NCBI GenBank assembly: GCA_902621305.1
Contig: CACNLM010000002.1
Span: forward strand, 681 to 64,680
Reading direction: 5' to 3'
DNA from: an uncultured Alphaproteobacteria bacterium
Lineage (GTDB): Bacteria; Pseudomonadota; Alphaproteobacteria; HIMB59; GCA-002718135
Length of the DNA stretch: 64,000 nt
The stretch's first letter is position 1; each line of letters starts with the position of its first letter. Shown one piece after another: positions 32,468 through 36,573 of the stretch. The position numbers and the translations under genes were made by a program. The notes beneath the pieces were generated by a model. The model was not told the origin of the DNA. It did no database searches and worked only from the letters and a program-made list of their open reading frames with translations.

Positions 32468-33457
32468 ATGATATCAAAAGGTGTTAAATCAATATTTCCA
32501 ATAAAAAACCAAGAAATTTGGGATAGATATAAACAACATATTCAAGCTTTTTGGACAACAGAAGAAGTATCATTACAAGACGATTTAAGAGATCTTGAAA
32601 CCTTAAATGATGGTGAAAAGCACTTTATAAAACATGTACTTGCTTATTTTGCTAACTCTGAGGCAATGATTAATGAAAACTTAGCAAGCAGATTCTACAA
32701 AGAAATACTAATACCTGAAGCAAGATGCTTTATCTCAATGCAGATGTTGAATGAATCAATTCATGCTGAAATGTACGGACTTCAAATAGAAGCTTATGTA
32801 AAAGATGCGAAAGAAAAAGATATGCTTTTTGATGCAATTCAAAATGTACCATGCATTAACCATAAAGCACAATGGGTATCAAAATGGCTTAATGGTAGTC
32901 AAAATCTCCTAACCAGATTAATAGGTTTTGGATTAGTTGAAGGTTTGTTTTTTGCAGGCTCTTTCTGTGCAATATATTATTTTAGAAAAAGAGGACTATT
33001 ACCAGGTTTAGCCTTATCTAACGATTGGATTGCAAGAGACGAAGGAATGCACTTTAGCTTCTCATCCTTAATGTTTAGGACTTTAAGAGACAAGTTTAAT
33101 AATAAAACATTAACTGATGCAGATATTAGTGATTTATCTTTGATTCCTTCAGACGTGCCACAATCACAGTTTGAAGAAATTGTTAGAGAAGCAGTAGCTT
33201 TTGAAAAAGAATTTGTAAAAGACGCACTGCCAGTAGATTTAATTGGTATGAACGCTGATTTAATGTGTCAATATATAGAAGCTGTCGCTGACAGAATTGC
33301 TGATCTATTTGAATTTGACAGAGTATTTAAAACAGAGAATCCTTTTGATTTTATGAGAGCTTTGGATGTTCAAAACGTTACAAACTTTTTTGAAAAAAGA
33401 GTATCGGAGTATCAAAGACCTACAGATAGAGCTTTAAGTTTTGATGAAGCATTTTAA
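32468..33457 (+). CDS. nrdB: Class I ribonucleoside-diphosphate reductase beta subunit
   Basis: FWTTEE, NESIHAEMY, VEGLFFAGSF, RDEGMH, NFFEKRVSEY; AGGAG RBS upstream. Confidence 0.96.
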   Translation: MISKGVKSIFPIKNQEIWDRYKQHIQAFWTTEEVSLQDDLRDLETLNDGEKHFIKHVLAYFANSEAMINENLASRFYKEILIPEARCFISMQMLNESIHAEMYGLQIEAYVKDAKEKDMLFDAIQNVPCINHKAQWVSKWLNGSQNLLTRLIGFGLVEGLFFAGSFCAIYYFRKRGLLPGLALSNDWIARDEGMHFSFSSLMFRTLRDKFNNKTLTDADISDLSLIPSDVPQSQFEEIVREAVAFEKEFVKDALPVDLIGMNADLMCQYIEAVADRIADLFEFDRVFKTENPFDFMRALDVQNVTNFFEKRVSEYQRPTDRALSFDEAF

Positions 33458-33696
33458 TGGAAGCAGAGATATACTCTAAAACTAATTGTGGATATTGTGA
33501 TAGAGCTAAACTACGTTTAGCTAAATATAATCCCAAGATTTATATGCTTGGTACAGACTATACGAGAGAAGATTTTTTTGAAAAATTTCCGAACGCTAAA
33601 ACCTTTCCTCAAATAATTTTAAATGGTGATAAAATTGGAGGGTATCATGAACTTGAAAAATGGTTTGAAATGAATACCTTTGATGAAGAATTCTAA
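33457..33696 (+). CDS. Glutaredoxin (likely RNR electron donor)
   Basis: CGYC active site, TFPQI, IGGY; TAATG overlap with nrdB. Confidence 0.92.
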   Translation: MEAEIYSKTNCGYCDRAKLRLAKYNPKIYMLGTDYTREDFFEKFPNAKTFPQIILNGDKIGGYHELEKWFEMNTFDEEF

Positions 33697-33821
33697 ATAA
33701 CCTTTTTTTTTCCTTTTCTTGTGTAAGCTTTTTTATTTCTAACAATTCTTTGTTTATACTTAGGCAGTTTTAAATCTTGAGCATAGGGGTTTCTTTTCTT
33801 AATTTTTTTTTTAATTTCCAT
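33693..33821 (-). CDS. Small basic protein (42 aa), ArfA-like alternative ribosome-rescue factor candidate
   Basis: Manual translation, below the ORF-track cutoff: MEIKKKIKKRNPYAQDLKLPKYKQRIVRNKKAYTRKGKKKVI*. Fills the polA-grx gap and starts 10 bp after the polA stop. Confidence 0.7.
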   Translation of the reverse strand: MEIKKKIKKRNPYAQDLKLPKYKQRIVRNKKAYTRKGKKKVI

Positions 33822-33831
33822 AAACTATGGT

Positions 33832-36573
33832 CTAATGTGCCTGTCCCCAATCATCACCAGCACCAAAATCAACAGTGAGTGGAACTGAAAAATCTTTATA
33901 TTTTAAATGTACTGACTCCATAATCGTTTTTACATTACTTACTAAATTATCATAATTTTTACTTTCGACTTCAAAAATTAATTCATCATGTACTTGTAAA
34001 AGCATTTCAGCCTCAATATTTTTAAGTTTTATTTCCTTATGAATTTCAATCATGGCTAACTTAATAATGTCTGCTGCACTACCTTGTATTGGAGCATTAA
34101 TAGCTTGTCTTTCTGCAAAACCTCTAACAGCAAAATTTTTATCGGCAATTCCCTTGATATTAATTTTTCTTTTAAAAATTGTTTCTACATATTGATTTGT
34201 TTTTGCAAAATCAATTTGATGGTCCATATATTTTTTAATTTTTGGATATTTAATAAAATATTCATTTATATAATCTTTTGCTTCTGTATTGGAAATATCA
34301 AGTTGTTTAGCTAAGCCGTATGGGCTGATTCCATATAGAATACCAAAATTAATTGCTTTTGCTTTTCTTCTATAATCATCGTTTATTTGACTATCGCTTA
34401 AATTAAATATTTCTTTAGCAGTTGATGCATGAATATCTTCATTGTTTTTAAAAGCTTTAATGAAATTTTTATCACTAGAAATTTCTGCAGCTAATCTAAG
34501 CTCTATTTGAGAGTAATCAAAACTGACTAATTTTTTCCCTTTTCCACTAATAAAGGCTGTTCTTATTTTTTTTCCATTTTCAGTTCTAATTGGAATATTT
34601 TGAAGATTTGGATCTGTAGAACTTAATCGACCTGTTAAAGTATTAGCCAAACCAAATGATGTATGAACTCTACTTTTACCATCTGTTAATCTAAATAAAG
34701 CATCTGTATAAGTTGATTTAAGTTTTGTTAATTCTCTCCAATCAAGAACGAGTTGTGCAATTTCAAATCCATCTGAGGCTAAATTATTTAAAGTTGAAGA
34801 ATCAGTAGAATATGTGCCTGATTTTGTTTTTTTACCACCAGGTATTTTAAGATTAACAAATAATATTTCTCCTAATTGTTTAGGTGAACCAATATTGAAC
34901 TCTTCTTTTGAAAGTTTATAAATATTCTTTTCAAGTTTTTTACTTTCATTTTCAAATTCATTACTTAGATTTGTTAAAAAATTTTTATTTACCTCGATAC
35001 CATTTGCTTCAATTGAAGATAATACCTCTACAAGAGGCAAATCGATGTTTTGATAAACAAAATTAGCCTTTTCTTTGATTAAACGAGGATAAAGATTTTG
35101 AAAAAGCCTGAATGTTAATAGAGAATCTTCGGCAGCATAATTAATTGCATTATCAATAGTTACTTTATCAAAAGTAATTTCATTTTTTCCTGTACCAACA
35201 ACTTCTTTATATTTAATTGTTGTGTGATTTAGATGATTAAATGAAAGATCATCTAAATTATGCTTATAAATACCATTATCAATTGAGTAGGAAATTAACA
35301 TTGTATCTGCAATTGAATTAAAAATTACTCCATACTTATTTAAAATTCTAATATCATATTTTATGTTTTGACCAATTTTTAAGATTGATTCATTTTTACA
35401 AATCTTATTAATATGATTAATTACATAATTTTCCTTTAACTGATTATCAATTTTTTTTGACCCATCTGAAGTTGTATGGTTTATAGGAATATAGTAAGAA
35501 ATGTTTTCACTATAACATATTGATATACCAACTAATTTTGCTTTTTCTATATTGAGTGAGTTAGTTTCAGTATCAATAGCACATATACCTTTTGTTTCTA
35601 TTTCACTTAAAATCTTTTCAAAGTTTTTCTTTGAATTAATTAATTGGTATTTTGGTTTTATTTCTTTTTTCTGAATAATATTATCATCATGATTAGATAT
35701 AAAAAGATTTGATTTTAGTCTTTCAGATGTTGATCTAAAACCTTGTTCTTTTAGAAATTTAAAGATGTTATTATTTTCTTTTTTTAATTCATTATATGTT
35801 TTTATTTTCTCAATACCCTCAGGTATTTTTACATCATTTTTTAGTGTTACAAGTTCTAAACTTAATCTGATATCCTTTTCTGCATCTGTTAAAATATTTC
35901 TTCTTTTTTCTTGTTTAATTTGATTGATATTTTTTAGTAAACCTTCAATATTATCAAATTCATTTATTAGCTGAGATGCTGTCTTAGGTCCAATACCAGG
36001 AGCGCCTGGAATATTATCTACTTTATCTCCTGTTAACGCTTGGATAAAAATAACCTTATCTGGTTGTACTCCAAACTTTTCTTCAACATCTTTAATTTCT
36101 ATTTTTTTATTTTTCATTGGATCAAGCATTGTTACATGTTTACTAACAAGCTGCATTAAATCTTTATCTGAGGATACTATGATAGTTTCAATTTTATCTT
36201 TTTCTGCTAAACTTACATAAGTAGCTATTAAATCATCAGCTTCAAATCCCTCTATTTCTAATTGTGGTATATTAAAACTCTTTACACACTCCCTAATTAG
36301 AGGAAATTGCGGTATTAAATCATCAGGAGCTTCTCCTCTGTTAGCTTTGTATTCTGGATAGATTTGATTTCTGAAATTTTCCCTTGCAGCATCAAAAATA
36401 ACTATCATTTTATCATCACTATAATCTTCTATCAGCTTAACAAGCATATTGGTAAAACCAAAAACAGCGTTGATTGGAGTACCATCTGCGCGATTCATAG
36501 GTGGTAATCCATAATAAGCCCTAAATATATAGGCAGAACCATCAACTAATATTAATCTACTCTTTGTATTCAT
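33832..36573 (-). CDS. polA: DNA polymerase I
   Basis: LVDGSAYIFRAY 5'-3' exonuclease, IDTET 3'-5' exonuclease, TGRLSSTDPNLQNIP, DYSQIELR, QVHDEL. Confidence 0.98.
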   Translation of the reverse strand: MNTKSRLILVDGSAYIFRAYYGLPPMNRADGTPINAVFGFTNMLVKLIEDYSDDKMIVIFDAARENFRNQIYPEYKANRGEAPDDLIPQFPLIRECVKSFNIPQLEIEGFEADDLIATYVSLAEKDKIETIIVSSDKDLMQLVSKHVTMLDPMKNKKIEIKDVEEKFGVQPDKVIFIQALTGDKVDNIPGAPGIGPKTASQLINEFDNIEGLLKNINQIKQEKRRNILTDAEKDIRLSLELVTLKNDVKIPEGIEKIKTYNELKKENNNIFKFLKEQGFRSTSERLKSNLFISNHDDNIIQKKEIKPKYQLINSKKNFEKILSEIETKGICAIDTETNSLNIEKAKLVGISICYSENISYYIPINHTTSDGSKKIDNQLKENYVINHINKICKNESILKIGQNIKYDIRILNKYGVIFNSIADTMLISYSIDNGIYKHNLDDLSFNHLNHTTIKYKEVVGTGKNEITFDKVTIDNAINYAAEDSLLTFRLFQNLYPRLIKEKANFVYQNIDLPLVEVLSSIEANGIEVNKNFLTNLSNEFENESKKLEKNIYKLSKEEFNIGSPKQLGEILFVNLKIPGGKKTKSGTYSTDSSTLNNLASDGFEIAQLVLDWRELTKLKSTYTDALFRLTDGKSRVHTSFGLANTLTGRLSSTDPNLQNIPIRTENGKKIRTAFISGKGKKLVSFDYSQIELRLAAEISSDKNFIKAFKNNEDIHASTAKEIFNLSDSQINDDYRRKAKAINFGILYGISPYGLAKQLDISNTEAKDYINEYFIKYPKIKKYMDHQIDFAKTNQYVETIFKRKINIKGIADKNFAVRGFAERQAINAPIQGSAADIIKLAMIEIHKEIKLKNIEAEMLLQVHDELIFEVESKNYDNLVSNVKTIMESVHLKYKDFSVPLTVDFGAGDDWGQAH

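Follow-up and report, generated by a model that had tools for sequence, protein, structure and literature searches.

The stretch analysed here, 64,000 nucleotides from an uncultured alphaproteobacterium (assembly GCA_902621305.1, contig CACNLM010000002.1, positions 681 to 64,680; hereafter the window), carries polA, which encodes DNA polymerase I, a convergent glutaredoxin gene, grx, and, between the two, a 42-codon open reading frame (ORF) whose small, basic product resembles the ribosome-rescue factor ArfA (Table 1). We put at about 0.6 the probability that the product of this ORF is a divergent, pared-down protein of the ArfA superfamily, acting as a release-factor-recruiting rescue factor. 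By Pfam, the polA product contains both 5'-3' exonuclease domains and the 3'-5' exonuclease domain, while grx follows two ribonucleotide reductase subunit genes; grx is a context marker and stands outside the ArfA-like system.

The ORF had been singled out in an earlier reading of the DNA made without database searches (the sequence-only reading), and its description of the locus proved accurate. The ATG...TAG minus-strand frame at 33693..33821 yields the 42-residue translation that it gave, the start lies 10 bp beyond the polA stop, the ORF and grx stops share 4 nt (33693-33696), as its 4-bp overlap implied, and the frame is closed by an in-frame TAG. The host is indeed an alphaproteobacterium, as its alpha-type tmRNA attests (RF01849, 216 bits).

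A conserved gene between polA and grx

The 42-residue ORF is a real, conserved gene under purifying selection. A word-indexed protein search returned 89 clusters at 62-98 % identity, most of them exactly 42 residues long and from marine assemblies; in NCBI, one is a hypothetical protein assigned to a Pelagibacteraceae bacterium. The protein was matched in 16 of 23 genomes of the same genus and in none of 16 genomes of the sister family within the same order, and in all 16 matching relatives the arrangement is the same, with polA followed by the ORF on one strand and nrdB followed by grx converging on it from the other. Ten of 13 more distant copies occupy the same slot between polA and grx, where the polA C-terminus is itself only about 69-84 % identical. 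Of the 17 same-genus loci, 15 have an unbroken reading frame, as do 12 of the 13 more distant ones.

Selection acts on the frame of the ORF. The ratio of nonsynonymous to synonymous divergence (dN/dS), computed from 13 of the 17 sequences after excluding L010, L011, L015 and L017 for indels or a different N-terminus, is 0.18 in frame versus 0.43-2.35 in the other five frames. Synonymous divergence (pS) is 0.229 in the ORF, 0.238 in grx and 0.212 in polA, while dN/dS is 0.054 in grx and 0.063 in the polA C-terminus, about threefold lower than in the ORF; equal pS combined with a higher dN/dS indicates that the ORF is constrained, but more loosely than its neighbours. The sequence-only reading had proposed conservation beside polA, together with dN/dS, as a check on its candidate, and both the retained slot and this ratio speak for the gene.

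A profile search over 149 genomes of the order gave a tally of 59 matches in the 77 genomes of the window's family, including one in G051 (18.5 bits within a 530-aa frame) that we judge to be noise, with convincing copies in six further genera of that family. Two of the 71 sister-family genomes were matched, one match being noise inside a 371-aa frame and the other lying on a contig of 6 kb from an assembly that has 150 contigs and 4 % contamination. One sister-family genome, G024, has a 187-codon gene on the opposite strand between polA and grx (L339:2388-3202), and no ArfA-like ORF, PF03889 match or third RF-1-domain gene was found there. Within the window's genus, one genome has a divergent ArfA-like copy elsewhere than beside polA, in an open frame of 75 codons (L067, G112:C22).

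Two relatives, L010 and L011, have a shorter second A run (A8 and A7), which shifts the frame for about 30 codons into grx antisense; the 66- and 74-residue variants in databases (for example P0013, with 40 member sequences) represent the same frame extension. These homopolymer-run variants may reflect sequencing error, real polymorphism or slippage.

In simple scans, nothing resembling a promoter was seen between polA and the ORF, and nothing resembling a terminator in 33300-34100, which, along with the 10-nt spacer, makes co-expression with polA plausible, as the sequence-only reading had supposed. Rfam has no match in 33400-34000, and the ORF RNA is less structured than shuffled sequences (z = +2.0; folding is as good or better in 199 of 200 shuffles). 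According to PMC8012679, E. coli arfA comprises 72 codons, and its transcript is cut or terminated at a hairpin to give a non-stop mRNA, with repression by tmRNA; the ORF, in contrast, has 42 codons, a stop codon and no hairpin. Control by tmRNA in the E. coli manner is consequently unlikely, and the ORF is more likely expressed constitutively with polA. Contigs from RNA libraries cover the ORF in all four runs, which is weak evidence of expression because these contigs carry no information on strand or 3' ends, could derive in part from DNA and also lie across the convergent grx transcript.

Table 1. Positions of the ArfA-like ORF, its segments and its neighbours in the window
Feature	Coordinates	Strand	Remarks
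ArfA-like ORF, 42 codons	33693..33821	minus	ATG 33819-33821, TAG 33693-33695; GKG-less small basic protein
N-terminal Lys-rich segment, residues 1-10	33792..33821	minus	differs between genera in alignments
Conserved core, residues 11-27 (N11, A14, L17, P20, Y22, R25, I26/V27)	33741..33791	minus	invariant columns
Basic C-terminal tail, residues 28-42	33696..33740	minus	putative mRNA-tunnel probe; GKG missing between K31 and A32
A10 homopolymer run (Lys codons) within the ORF	33803..33812	minus	kept in most relatives
A9 homopolymer run, 4 codons ahead of the stop	33703..33711	minus	A8 or A7 in two relatives
10-nt spacer, polA stop to ORF start	33822..33831	minus	without a recognisable Shine-Dalgarno sequence
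polA (DNA polymerase I), 913 aa, upstream of the ORF	33832..36573	minus	PF00476, 504.9 bits
Glutaredoxin gene (grx), 79 aa, convergent with the ORF	33457..33696	plus	PF00462, 31.6 bits

Relationship to ArfA and to a GKG-less family

Profile comparisons make it very probable that the ORF is homologous to ArfA, with a three-residue deletion at GKG. The connection runs through P0087, a 43-aa metagenome protein whose first 27 residues are near-identical to those of the window ORF and whose tail is of the canonical KGKGS type. P0087, which has GKG, scores 29.4 bits against the ArfA model PF03889 (gathering threshold 25.5 bits) and is the only one of 35 aligned relatives to pass it. Querying with P0087 retrieved a large set of PF03889-positive proteins of 35-44 residues, 50 of which constitute alignment A3. 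When the genus alignment without P0087 (A2) was compared with A3 by hhalign, the two matched (97.7 %, E 2.4e-12, score 53.3) with a sole gap, the three residues at GKG. Shuffling the columns of A2 200 times gave a mean score against A3 of 10.7 (standard deviation 2.9) and a maximum of 22.0, so that none of the 200 shuffles reached 53.3; Lys-rich composition, which the sequence-only reading feared might by itself produce a match, does not explain the A2-A3 match.

The family-wide alignment of 30 sequences, A6, also matches A3 (98.3 %, E 2.2e-14), and a PDB search with A3 picks up the chains of E. coli ArfA (E about 3e-6). Searched with HMMER against 177,635 PDB sequences, A6 has six matches at E<=10, all of them ArfA, at E 0.14-0.38; the genus-only profile A1 returned nothing from the PDB at E<=10, and the broader A6 and A7 (33 viral-contig ORFs) were needed to reach ArfA. 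Since E-values of 0.14-0.38 are not significant alone, homology to E. coli ArfA depends on the chain through A3. The profile check against the ArfA family that the sequence-only reading had advised thus has a divided outcome, with a profile-profile link to PF03889-positive mini-ArfAs and no direct PF03889 match, while the alignment to E. coli ArfA that it had drawn was reproduced by HMMER in the same register and with the same three-residue gap at GKG.

In this register, the offset is three as far as K31 (ORF residue i, E. coli residue i+3), the GKG at E. coli 35-37 is unmatched, and past the gap A32 pairs with Ser38 and K39 with residue 45, which, when extended, places I42 at about residue 48. 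N11, A14, L17, K30, R35 and K36 are kept across all groups, Y22 and K31 being nearly invariant, and by the HMMER alignment the kept columns map to E. coli N14, L20, F25, K33/K34, R41 and K42. The ORF retains N11, A14, L17, P20, Y22, R25, I26/V27, K30/K31, Y33, R35 and K36. In the 30 members of A6, Y22 (the Phe25 column) is invariant and the KGKGS motif is present in none; P20 is the genus consensus, nearly invariant in A1 and A2 and substituted in a few members. ArfA, for which 5MGP, 5MDV, 5U4I and 5H5U are the E. coli reference structures, is like the ORF in being small and basic with the same order of elements, namely N..A..L, P-x-aromatic-x-x-R-hydrophobic, KK and an aromatic-x-R-K tail. 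The ORF is unlike ArfA in being without GKG and in falling below every PF03889 threshold.

A second metagenome protein, P0090 (70 aa), looks like an in-frame fusion of a canonical mini-ArfA with a GKG-less copy. P0090 and P0087 could stem from tandem paralogues or from recombination with copies in phages, or could be chimeras of assembly; a metagenome scan for the P0090 contig did not recover the tandem, its 80 kept loci being single canonical-type copies (79 with GKG, 1 with GRG). P0206, a 724-aa protein of ten tandem repeats, matches profile positions 11-27 weakly, apparently as an artefact of its repeats and with no relation to the family.

Pelagibacter chromosomes encode canonical relatives of about the same size. 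Searching species-representative genomes with A3 identified 460 relatives among 600 candidates, and all 80 kept loci (L149-L228) are titled Pelagibacter, Pelagibacteraceae or Pelagibacterales; none of the 80 adjoins polA, grx or nrdB. In Candidatus Pelagibacter sp. HIMB1483, the 41-codon mini-ArfA gene (L149:3001-3126) lies among ordinary chromosomal genes, its start overlapping the end of an upstream 192-codon ORF. It scores 26.5 bits against PF03889, mostly from the KKGKGS stretch, which explains why GKG-less forms are missed. All four mini-ArfA Pelagibacter genomes counted have one copy and just two RF-1-domain genes. Like the window ORF, these mini-ArfAs (35-44 aa) are stop-terminated, have no hairpin and are of the same length, with about 50-60 % identity over the core. 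Unlike it, they keep KPKKGKGSF, pass PF03889 narrowly (26.5-35 bits versus 25.5) and occupy another locus, and none was found in the window's order by PF03889 over the 149 genomes. Viral contigs carry canonical copies as well (96 relatives among 591 candidates, with GKG in 76 of the 80 matches of kept loci), as do two 1.2-Mb genomes of a class-wide sample of 301 alphaproteobacterial genomes.

By sequence, the window ORF is no lone oddity; it belongs to a large GKG-less family that phages share, and is nearer to this family than to ArfA proper. An exhaustive HMMER search with A6 against 1.84 billion representatives gave at least 838 proteins or clusters at E<=1e-3, including 21 at E<=1e-10; all 147 newly listed top matches are without KG[KR]G, and their median length is 52 residues. 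On viral contigs, a scan with A6 found 334 relatives among 600 candidate stretches, and 79 of the best 80 loci lack GKG. The viral contigs carrying GKG-less or canonical ArfA-like ORFs (IMG/VR; L342-L421, L068-L147) measure 4-166 kb, and the fetched loci of the GKG-less scan, at 29-51 % G+C, contain no host-like polA, grx or nrdB. Many of the GKG-less viral copies have longer, acidic or mixed C-terminal extensions with no counterpart in ArfA. A7, which includes four DUF7230-passing viral ORFs, aligns with A6 without gaps (99.4 %, E 1.9e-21) and with A3 across the same GKG gap (98.6 %), and its top six PDB matches are ArfA chains (E 0.007-0.015). In the class-wide sample, 17 of the 301 genomes have matches, and GKG-less ORFs appear sporadically in unrelated Alphaproteobacteria of 40-65 % G+C (L429, L430, L433-L438).

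Two catalogued families, both labelled as of function unknown in Pfam and PHROGs and mostly found on viral contigs, cover a part of these GKG-less proteins. DUF7230 (PF23876) and phrog_20887 share the core motif with the ORF and likewise lack GKG; the host copy, unlike their viral members, is a fixed chromosomal gene. DUF7230 matches 18 of 23 scanned viral ORFs at E<=1, with 4 of the 23 passing its 27-bit cut-off; at E<=1 it matches neither the window ORF nor the two other host versions scanned, and 2 of 35 aligned relatives reach E 0.23. phrog_20887, which comes without a curated cut-off, is matched by the window ORF over residues 8-37 (E 4.2e-4, 21.2 bits) and by 12 of 13 scanned proteins, canonical mini-ArfAs included. 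On these comparisons, the gene is best classed as a GKG-less ArfA variant whose nearest kin are the uncharacterised DUF7230/phrog_20887 proteins. No mention of DUF7230 was found in the literature searched.

Other searches touch on the viral side of the family. Of 160 viral loci checked, 3 (L379, L399 and L419, each among the 80 that the GKG-less scan contributed) encode a phage family-A DNA polymerase about 1.3 kb upstream of the ArfA-like ORF, with 28-29 % identity to the polA C-terminus; the arrangement faintly recalls that of the host and may be coincidental. A PHROG scan of seven neighbours of one viral copy gave no match. The nearest clusters in the ESM Atlas are unnamed, one of them with 20 % DUF7230, and are uninformative alone. 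With the low-complexity filter on, tblastn of a canonical mini-ArfA against named phage genomes found no match; the window ORF matched Roseobacter phage CRP-13 and Acinetobacter phage 133 weakly (E 0.009-0.04), the CRP-13 match falling inside a 313-aa annotated protein and being probably compositional.

A candidate rescue mechanism and its alternatives

From the analogy with ArfA, we infer translation, ribosome binding, a release-factor partner and rescue activity for the ORF product, and we regard a rescue function as probable. The 42-residue peptide would be made complete and stop-terminated, probably from the polA transcript. On a ribosome at the 3' end of a truncated mRNA, its Lys/Arg-rich tail (residues 28-42) would enter the empty mRNA tunnel of the 30S subunit, and its conserved core (residues 11-27, with P20, Y22 and R25) would then occupy the vacant A site beside the decoding centre. 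There the core would dock and activate a class-I release factor, most likely RF2, which would hydrolyse the peptidyl-tRNA without a stop codon, making the peptide a backup to tmRNA-SmpB.

These steps are modelled on E. coli ArfA as described in PMC5378476. Its residues 2-16 are disordered in Structure I, and the N-terminal segment of the ORF (residues 1-10) aligns with the part that is disordered until RF2 opens. The core, residues 11-27, aligns with ArfA 14-30, the end of the N-terminal minidomain and the A-site mid-region. ArfA residues 21-30 lie in the A site (PMC5378476), and their counterpart is K18-V27, with R25-I26 at Arg28-Val29. Pro23, which stacks on A1492/A1493, aligns with P20, and Phe25, which together with Leu19 and Leu24 holds Trp319 of the RF2 switch loop and gives RF2 specificity, aligns with Y22 (PMC5378476). 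ArfA residues 31-48 fill the mRNA tunnel (PMC5378476); in the corresponding tail of the ORF, R28-I42, 8 of 15 residues are Lys or Arg, the same count as in E. coli 31-48 where the alignment shows it. In the account of PMC6299226, no single tail residue of E. coli ArfA is essential, KGKGS included.

The genome contains RF2 (TIGR00020, 453.9 bits), the partner that ArfA needs, together with RF1, SmpB and the alpha-type tmRNA, in an assembly that is 87 % complete. The Trp of the IGWG motif, presumably the equivalent of E. coli Trp319, is present in 30 of 30 alphaproteobacterial sequences of an RF2 alignment (A5). In prfB, a Shine-Dalgarno-like AGGAGGG is followed by an in-frame TGA (L021:820-900, contig C11), the RF2 body of 304 codons being in the +1 frame, so that the gene appears to carry the usual programmed +1 frameshift site. 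A third RF-1-domain gene, which would be ArfB, was not found in the ORF's genome or in any of the order's 50 genomes with a completeness of at least 85 % (two RF-1-domain genes in 46, a single one in 4), and this fits, weakly, a need for another backup.

Several observations weigh against an ArfA-type rescue factor. At the level of families, neither Pfam nor NCBIfam has a match for the ORF at E<=10, PF03889 finds nothing in its genome, and over the 149 genomes of the order this model yields just three 13.5-bit, chance-level matches in long frames. The hallmark GKG of KGKGS is missing, the three-residue gap falling exactly there, and the tunnel segment has 15 residues versus the 18 of E. coli (31-48), where ArfA shorter than Asn47 loses activity (PMC5378476, citing Chadani 2011). 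Only the aromatic residue of the RF2-binding patch is kept, as Y22, the Leu19 and Leu24 columns being occupied by Asp16 and Lys21. Ala18, which sits in the core of the N-terminal minidomain (PMC5378476), has Gln15 in its column; the sequence-only reading had flagged this substitution, which stands in the gap-free alignment, but the invariant A14 and L17 lie one column off the Ala18 and Leu19 columns, and the mismatch may therefore be a one-column offset or local register shift.

The distribution of the gene raises further objections. By profile search the ORF was not found in 69 of 71 sister-family genomes. Five same-genus genomes without a profile match were inspected, of which two yielded no locus and the other three (G020, G067 and G084) have polA and grx abutting with no ORF between them. 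In these three, the grx and polA matches are a few bases apart or overlapping, the nrdB/grx DNA shares about 81 % identity with that of the window, and a search with the A4 profile detects no copy at any other place; in G020, whose locus was inspected base by base (L424:1657-1900), the polA and grx stops overlap by 4 nt, the same geometry as that of the ORF and grx in the window. The gene is thus dispensable in some lineages, which argues against an essential role. Nor do carriers stand out by their ArfB content. Of the 301 alphaproteobacterial genomes, a family-balanced sample, 91 have three or more RF-1-domain genes by hand count, and such a third gene is present in 3 of 17 carriers versus 88 of 284 non-carriers (Fisher p = 0.29; leaving out G193 and G400, 89 of 299, the result is unchanged). 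Complementarity with ArfB, hinted at by the first five carriers (four without ArfB), was dropped after this full table.

Among other readings of the locus, the simplest, that there is no gene and the frame arose by chance in the polA-grx spacer or belongs to a 3' UTR element, draws on the shortness of the ORF, its missing Shine-Dalgarno sequence and its low-complexity, Lys-rich peptide. It is scarcely credible in view of frame-specific purifying selection and 838 homologous clusters at E<=1e-3, and neither the empty Rfam search nor an RNA less structured than its shuffles (z = +2.0) suggests an RNA element. Decay would leave a functionless remnant of an ArfA-type or phage gene, and a dN/dS three times that of the neighbours (0.18 versus 0.054 and 0.063), the homopolymer frameshifts of L010 and L011 and the absence from three same-genus genomes could be taken as its signs. 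We nevertheless find this highly improbable, as the frame is intact in 15 of 17 same-genus and 12 of 13 more distant loci, the slot is preserved in at least six further genera, the other frames have clearly higher dN/dS, and the invariant residues are ArfA functional columns.

The remaining alternatives accept a functional peptide and differ over what it does. It might bind the mRNA tunnel and A site without promoting release, serving to modulate translation or as a factor of the storage or hibernation type, which the host may have retained from a phage; the nearest relatives are mostly viral (334 of 600 candidates, with 79 of the best 80 loci GKG-less), their C-terminal extensions are varied and often acidic, Pfam and PHROGs list them as of function unknown, and the gene is dispensable in some genomes. 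We consider this unlikely because conservation extends beyond the basic tail to the columns of the ArfA A-site and release-factor-contact region, and because the host copy sits in a core chromosomal slot across genera under purifying selection; a pelagiphage ArfA that is transcribed in infection (PMC12753301) also fits rescue as a useful phage function. Alternatively, the peptide could rescue ribosomes under another partner rule, with RF1, or with either RF1 or RF2. The model here is ArfT of Francisella tularensis, which, like the ORF, has about 40 residues and a stop codon and is not controlled like arfA (PMC6299226); it has a basic C-terminal segment resembling KGKGS, a likeness to the ORF that we draw by description only, and, unlike ArfA, it works with RF1 or RF2 and is regarded by its authors as independently evolved (PMC6299226). 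Both release factors are encoded in the genome, and Leu19 and Leu24 of the RF2-specific patch are replaced by Asp16 and Lys21. Such a rule nonetheless seems distinctly unlikely, given that Y22 at the Phe25 column is invariant in 30 of 30 family members, that conservation is strongest in the mid-region, whose E. coli counterpart pairs with RF2, and that the IGWG Trp, the supposed Trp319 equivalent, is present in 30 of 30 alphaproteobacterial RF2 sequences. BrfA of Bacillus subtilis is a small RF2-dependent rescue factor, as proposed for the ORF; it is reported to be unrelated in sequence and to be made from a non-stop mRNA (PMC8012679), and our comparison with it is by description only.

ArfA-type factors in marine Alphaproteobacteria and phages

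ArfA has been considered foreign to the host's class. A review restricts it to a subset of Beta- and Gammaproteobacteria (PMC8012679), and a 2024 survey of 15,259 genomes lists it in Gammaproteobacteria, some Betaproteobacteria and a few Bacillus, its nucleotide HMMs (hidden Markov models) giving arfA in 0 and arfB in 2,022 of 2,376 Alphaproteobacteria (PMC11633108). PMC6514570, in what it presents on the subject, extends ArfT, not ArfA. The sequence-only reading likewise took ArfA to be described mainly from the gamma and beta classes. Canonical mini-ArfAs that pass Pfam are nevertheless present in many Pelagibacter genomes; with these, ArfA in SAR11-type Alphaproteobacteria is already visible in databases. 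The literature searched for ArfA ribosome rescue and Pelagibacter offered nothing except the pelagiphage paper PMC12753301, which describes HTVC027P gp30 as a PF03889-positive ArfA transcribed during infection. ArfA is also mentioned in a paper on a Citromicrobium phage (PMC8953757).

The analysis shows that SAR11-type genomes carry tiny ArfAs, and that a more divergent form without the hallmark motif lies beside polA in the window's family and is abundant in phages. Beyond this, we suggest tentatively, as a possibility we hold with less than even confidence, that the GKG-less proteins (the ORF, its phage kin, DUF7230 and phrog_20887; at least 838 clusters) may form a distinct, widespread branch of release-factor-recruiting rescue factors, constitutive, stop-terminated and outside tmRNA control, which would be the only backup of trans-translation in streamlined marine Alphaproteobacteria and would be used by many phages. 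If so, phages would keep ribosomes turning over during message destruction, it would be wrong to say that the Alphaproteobacteria have no ArfA, and the mechanism could no longer be defined by KGKGS.

Should these peptides rescue ribosomes, the minimum needed to activate a release factor without a stop codon would be about 35-40 residues without KGKGS. DUF7230 and phrog_20887 would then gain a testable role, and some of the most abundant marine bacteria would gain an identified backup to tmRNA.

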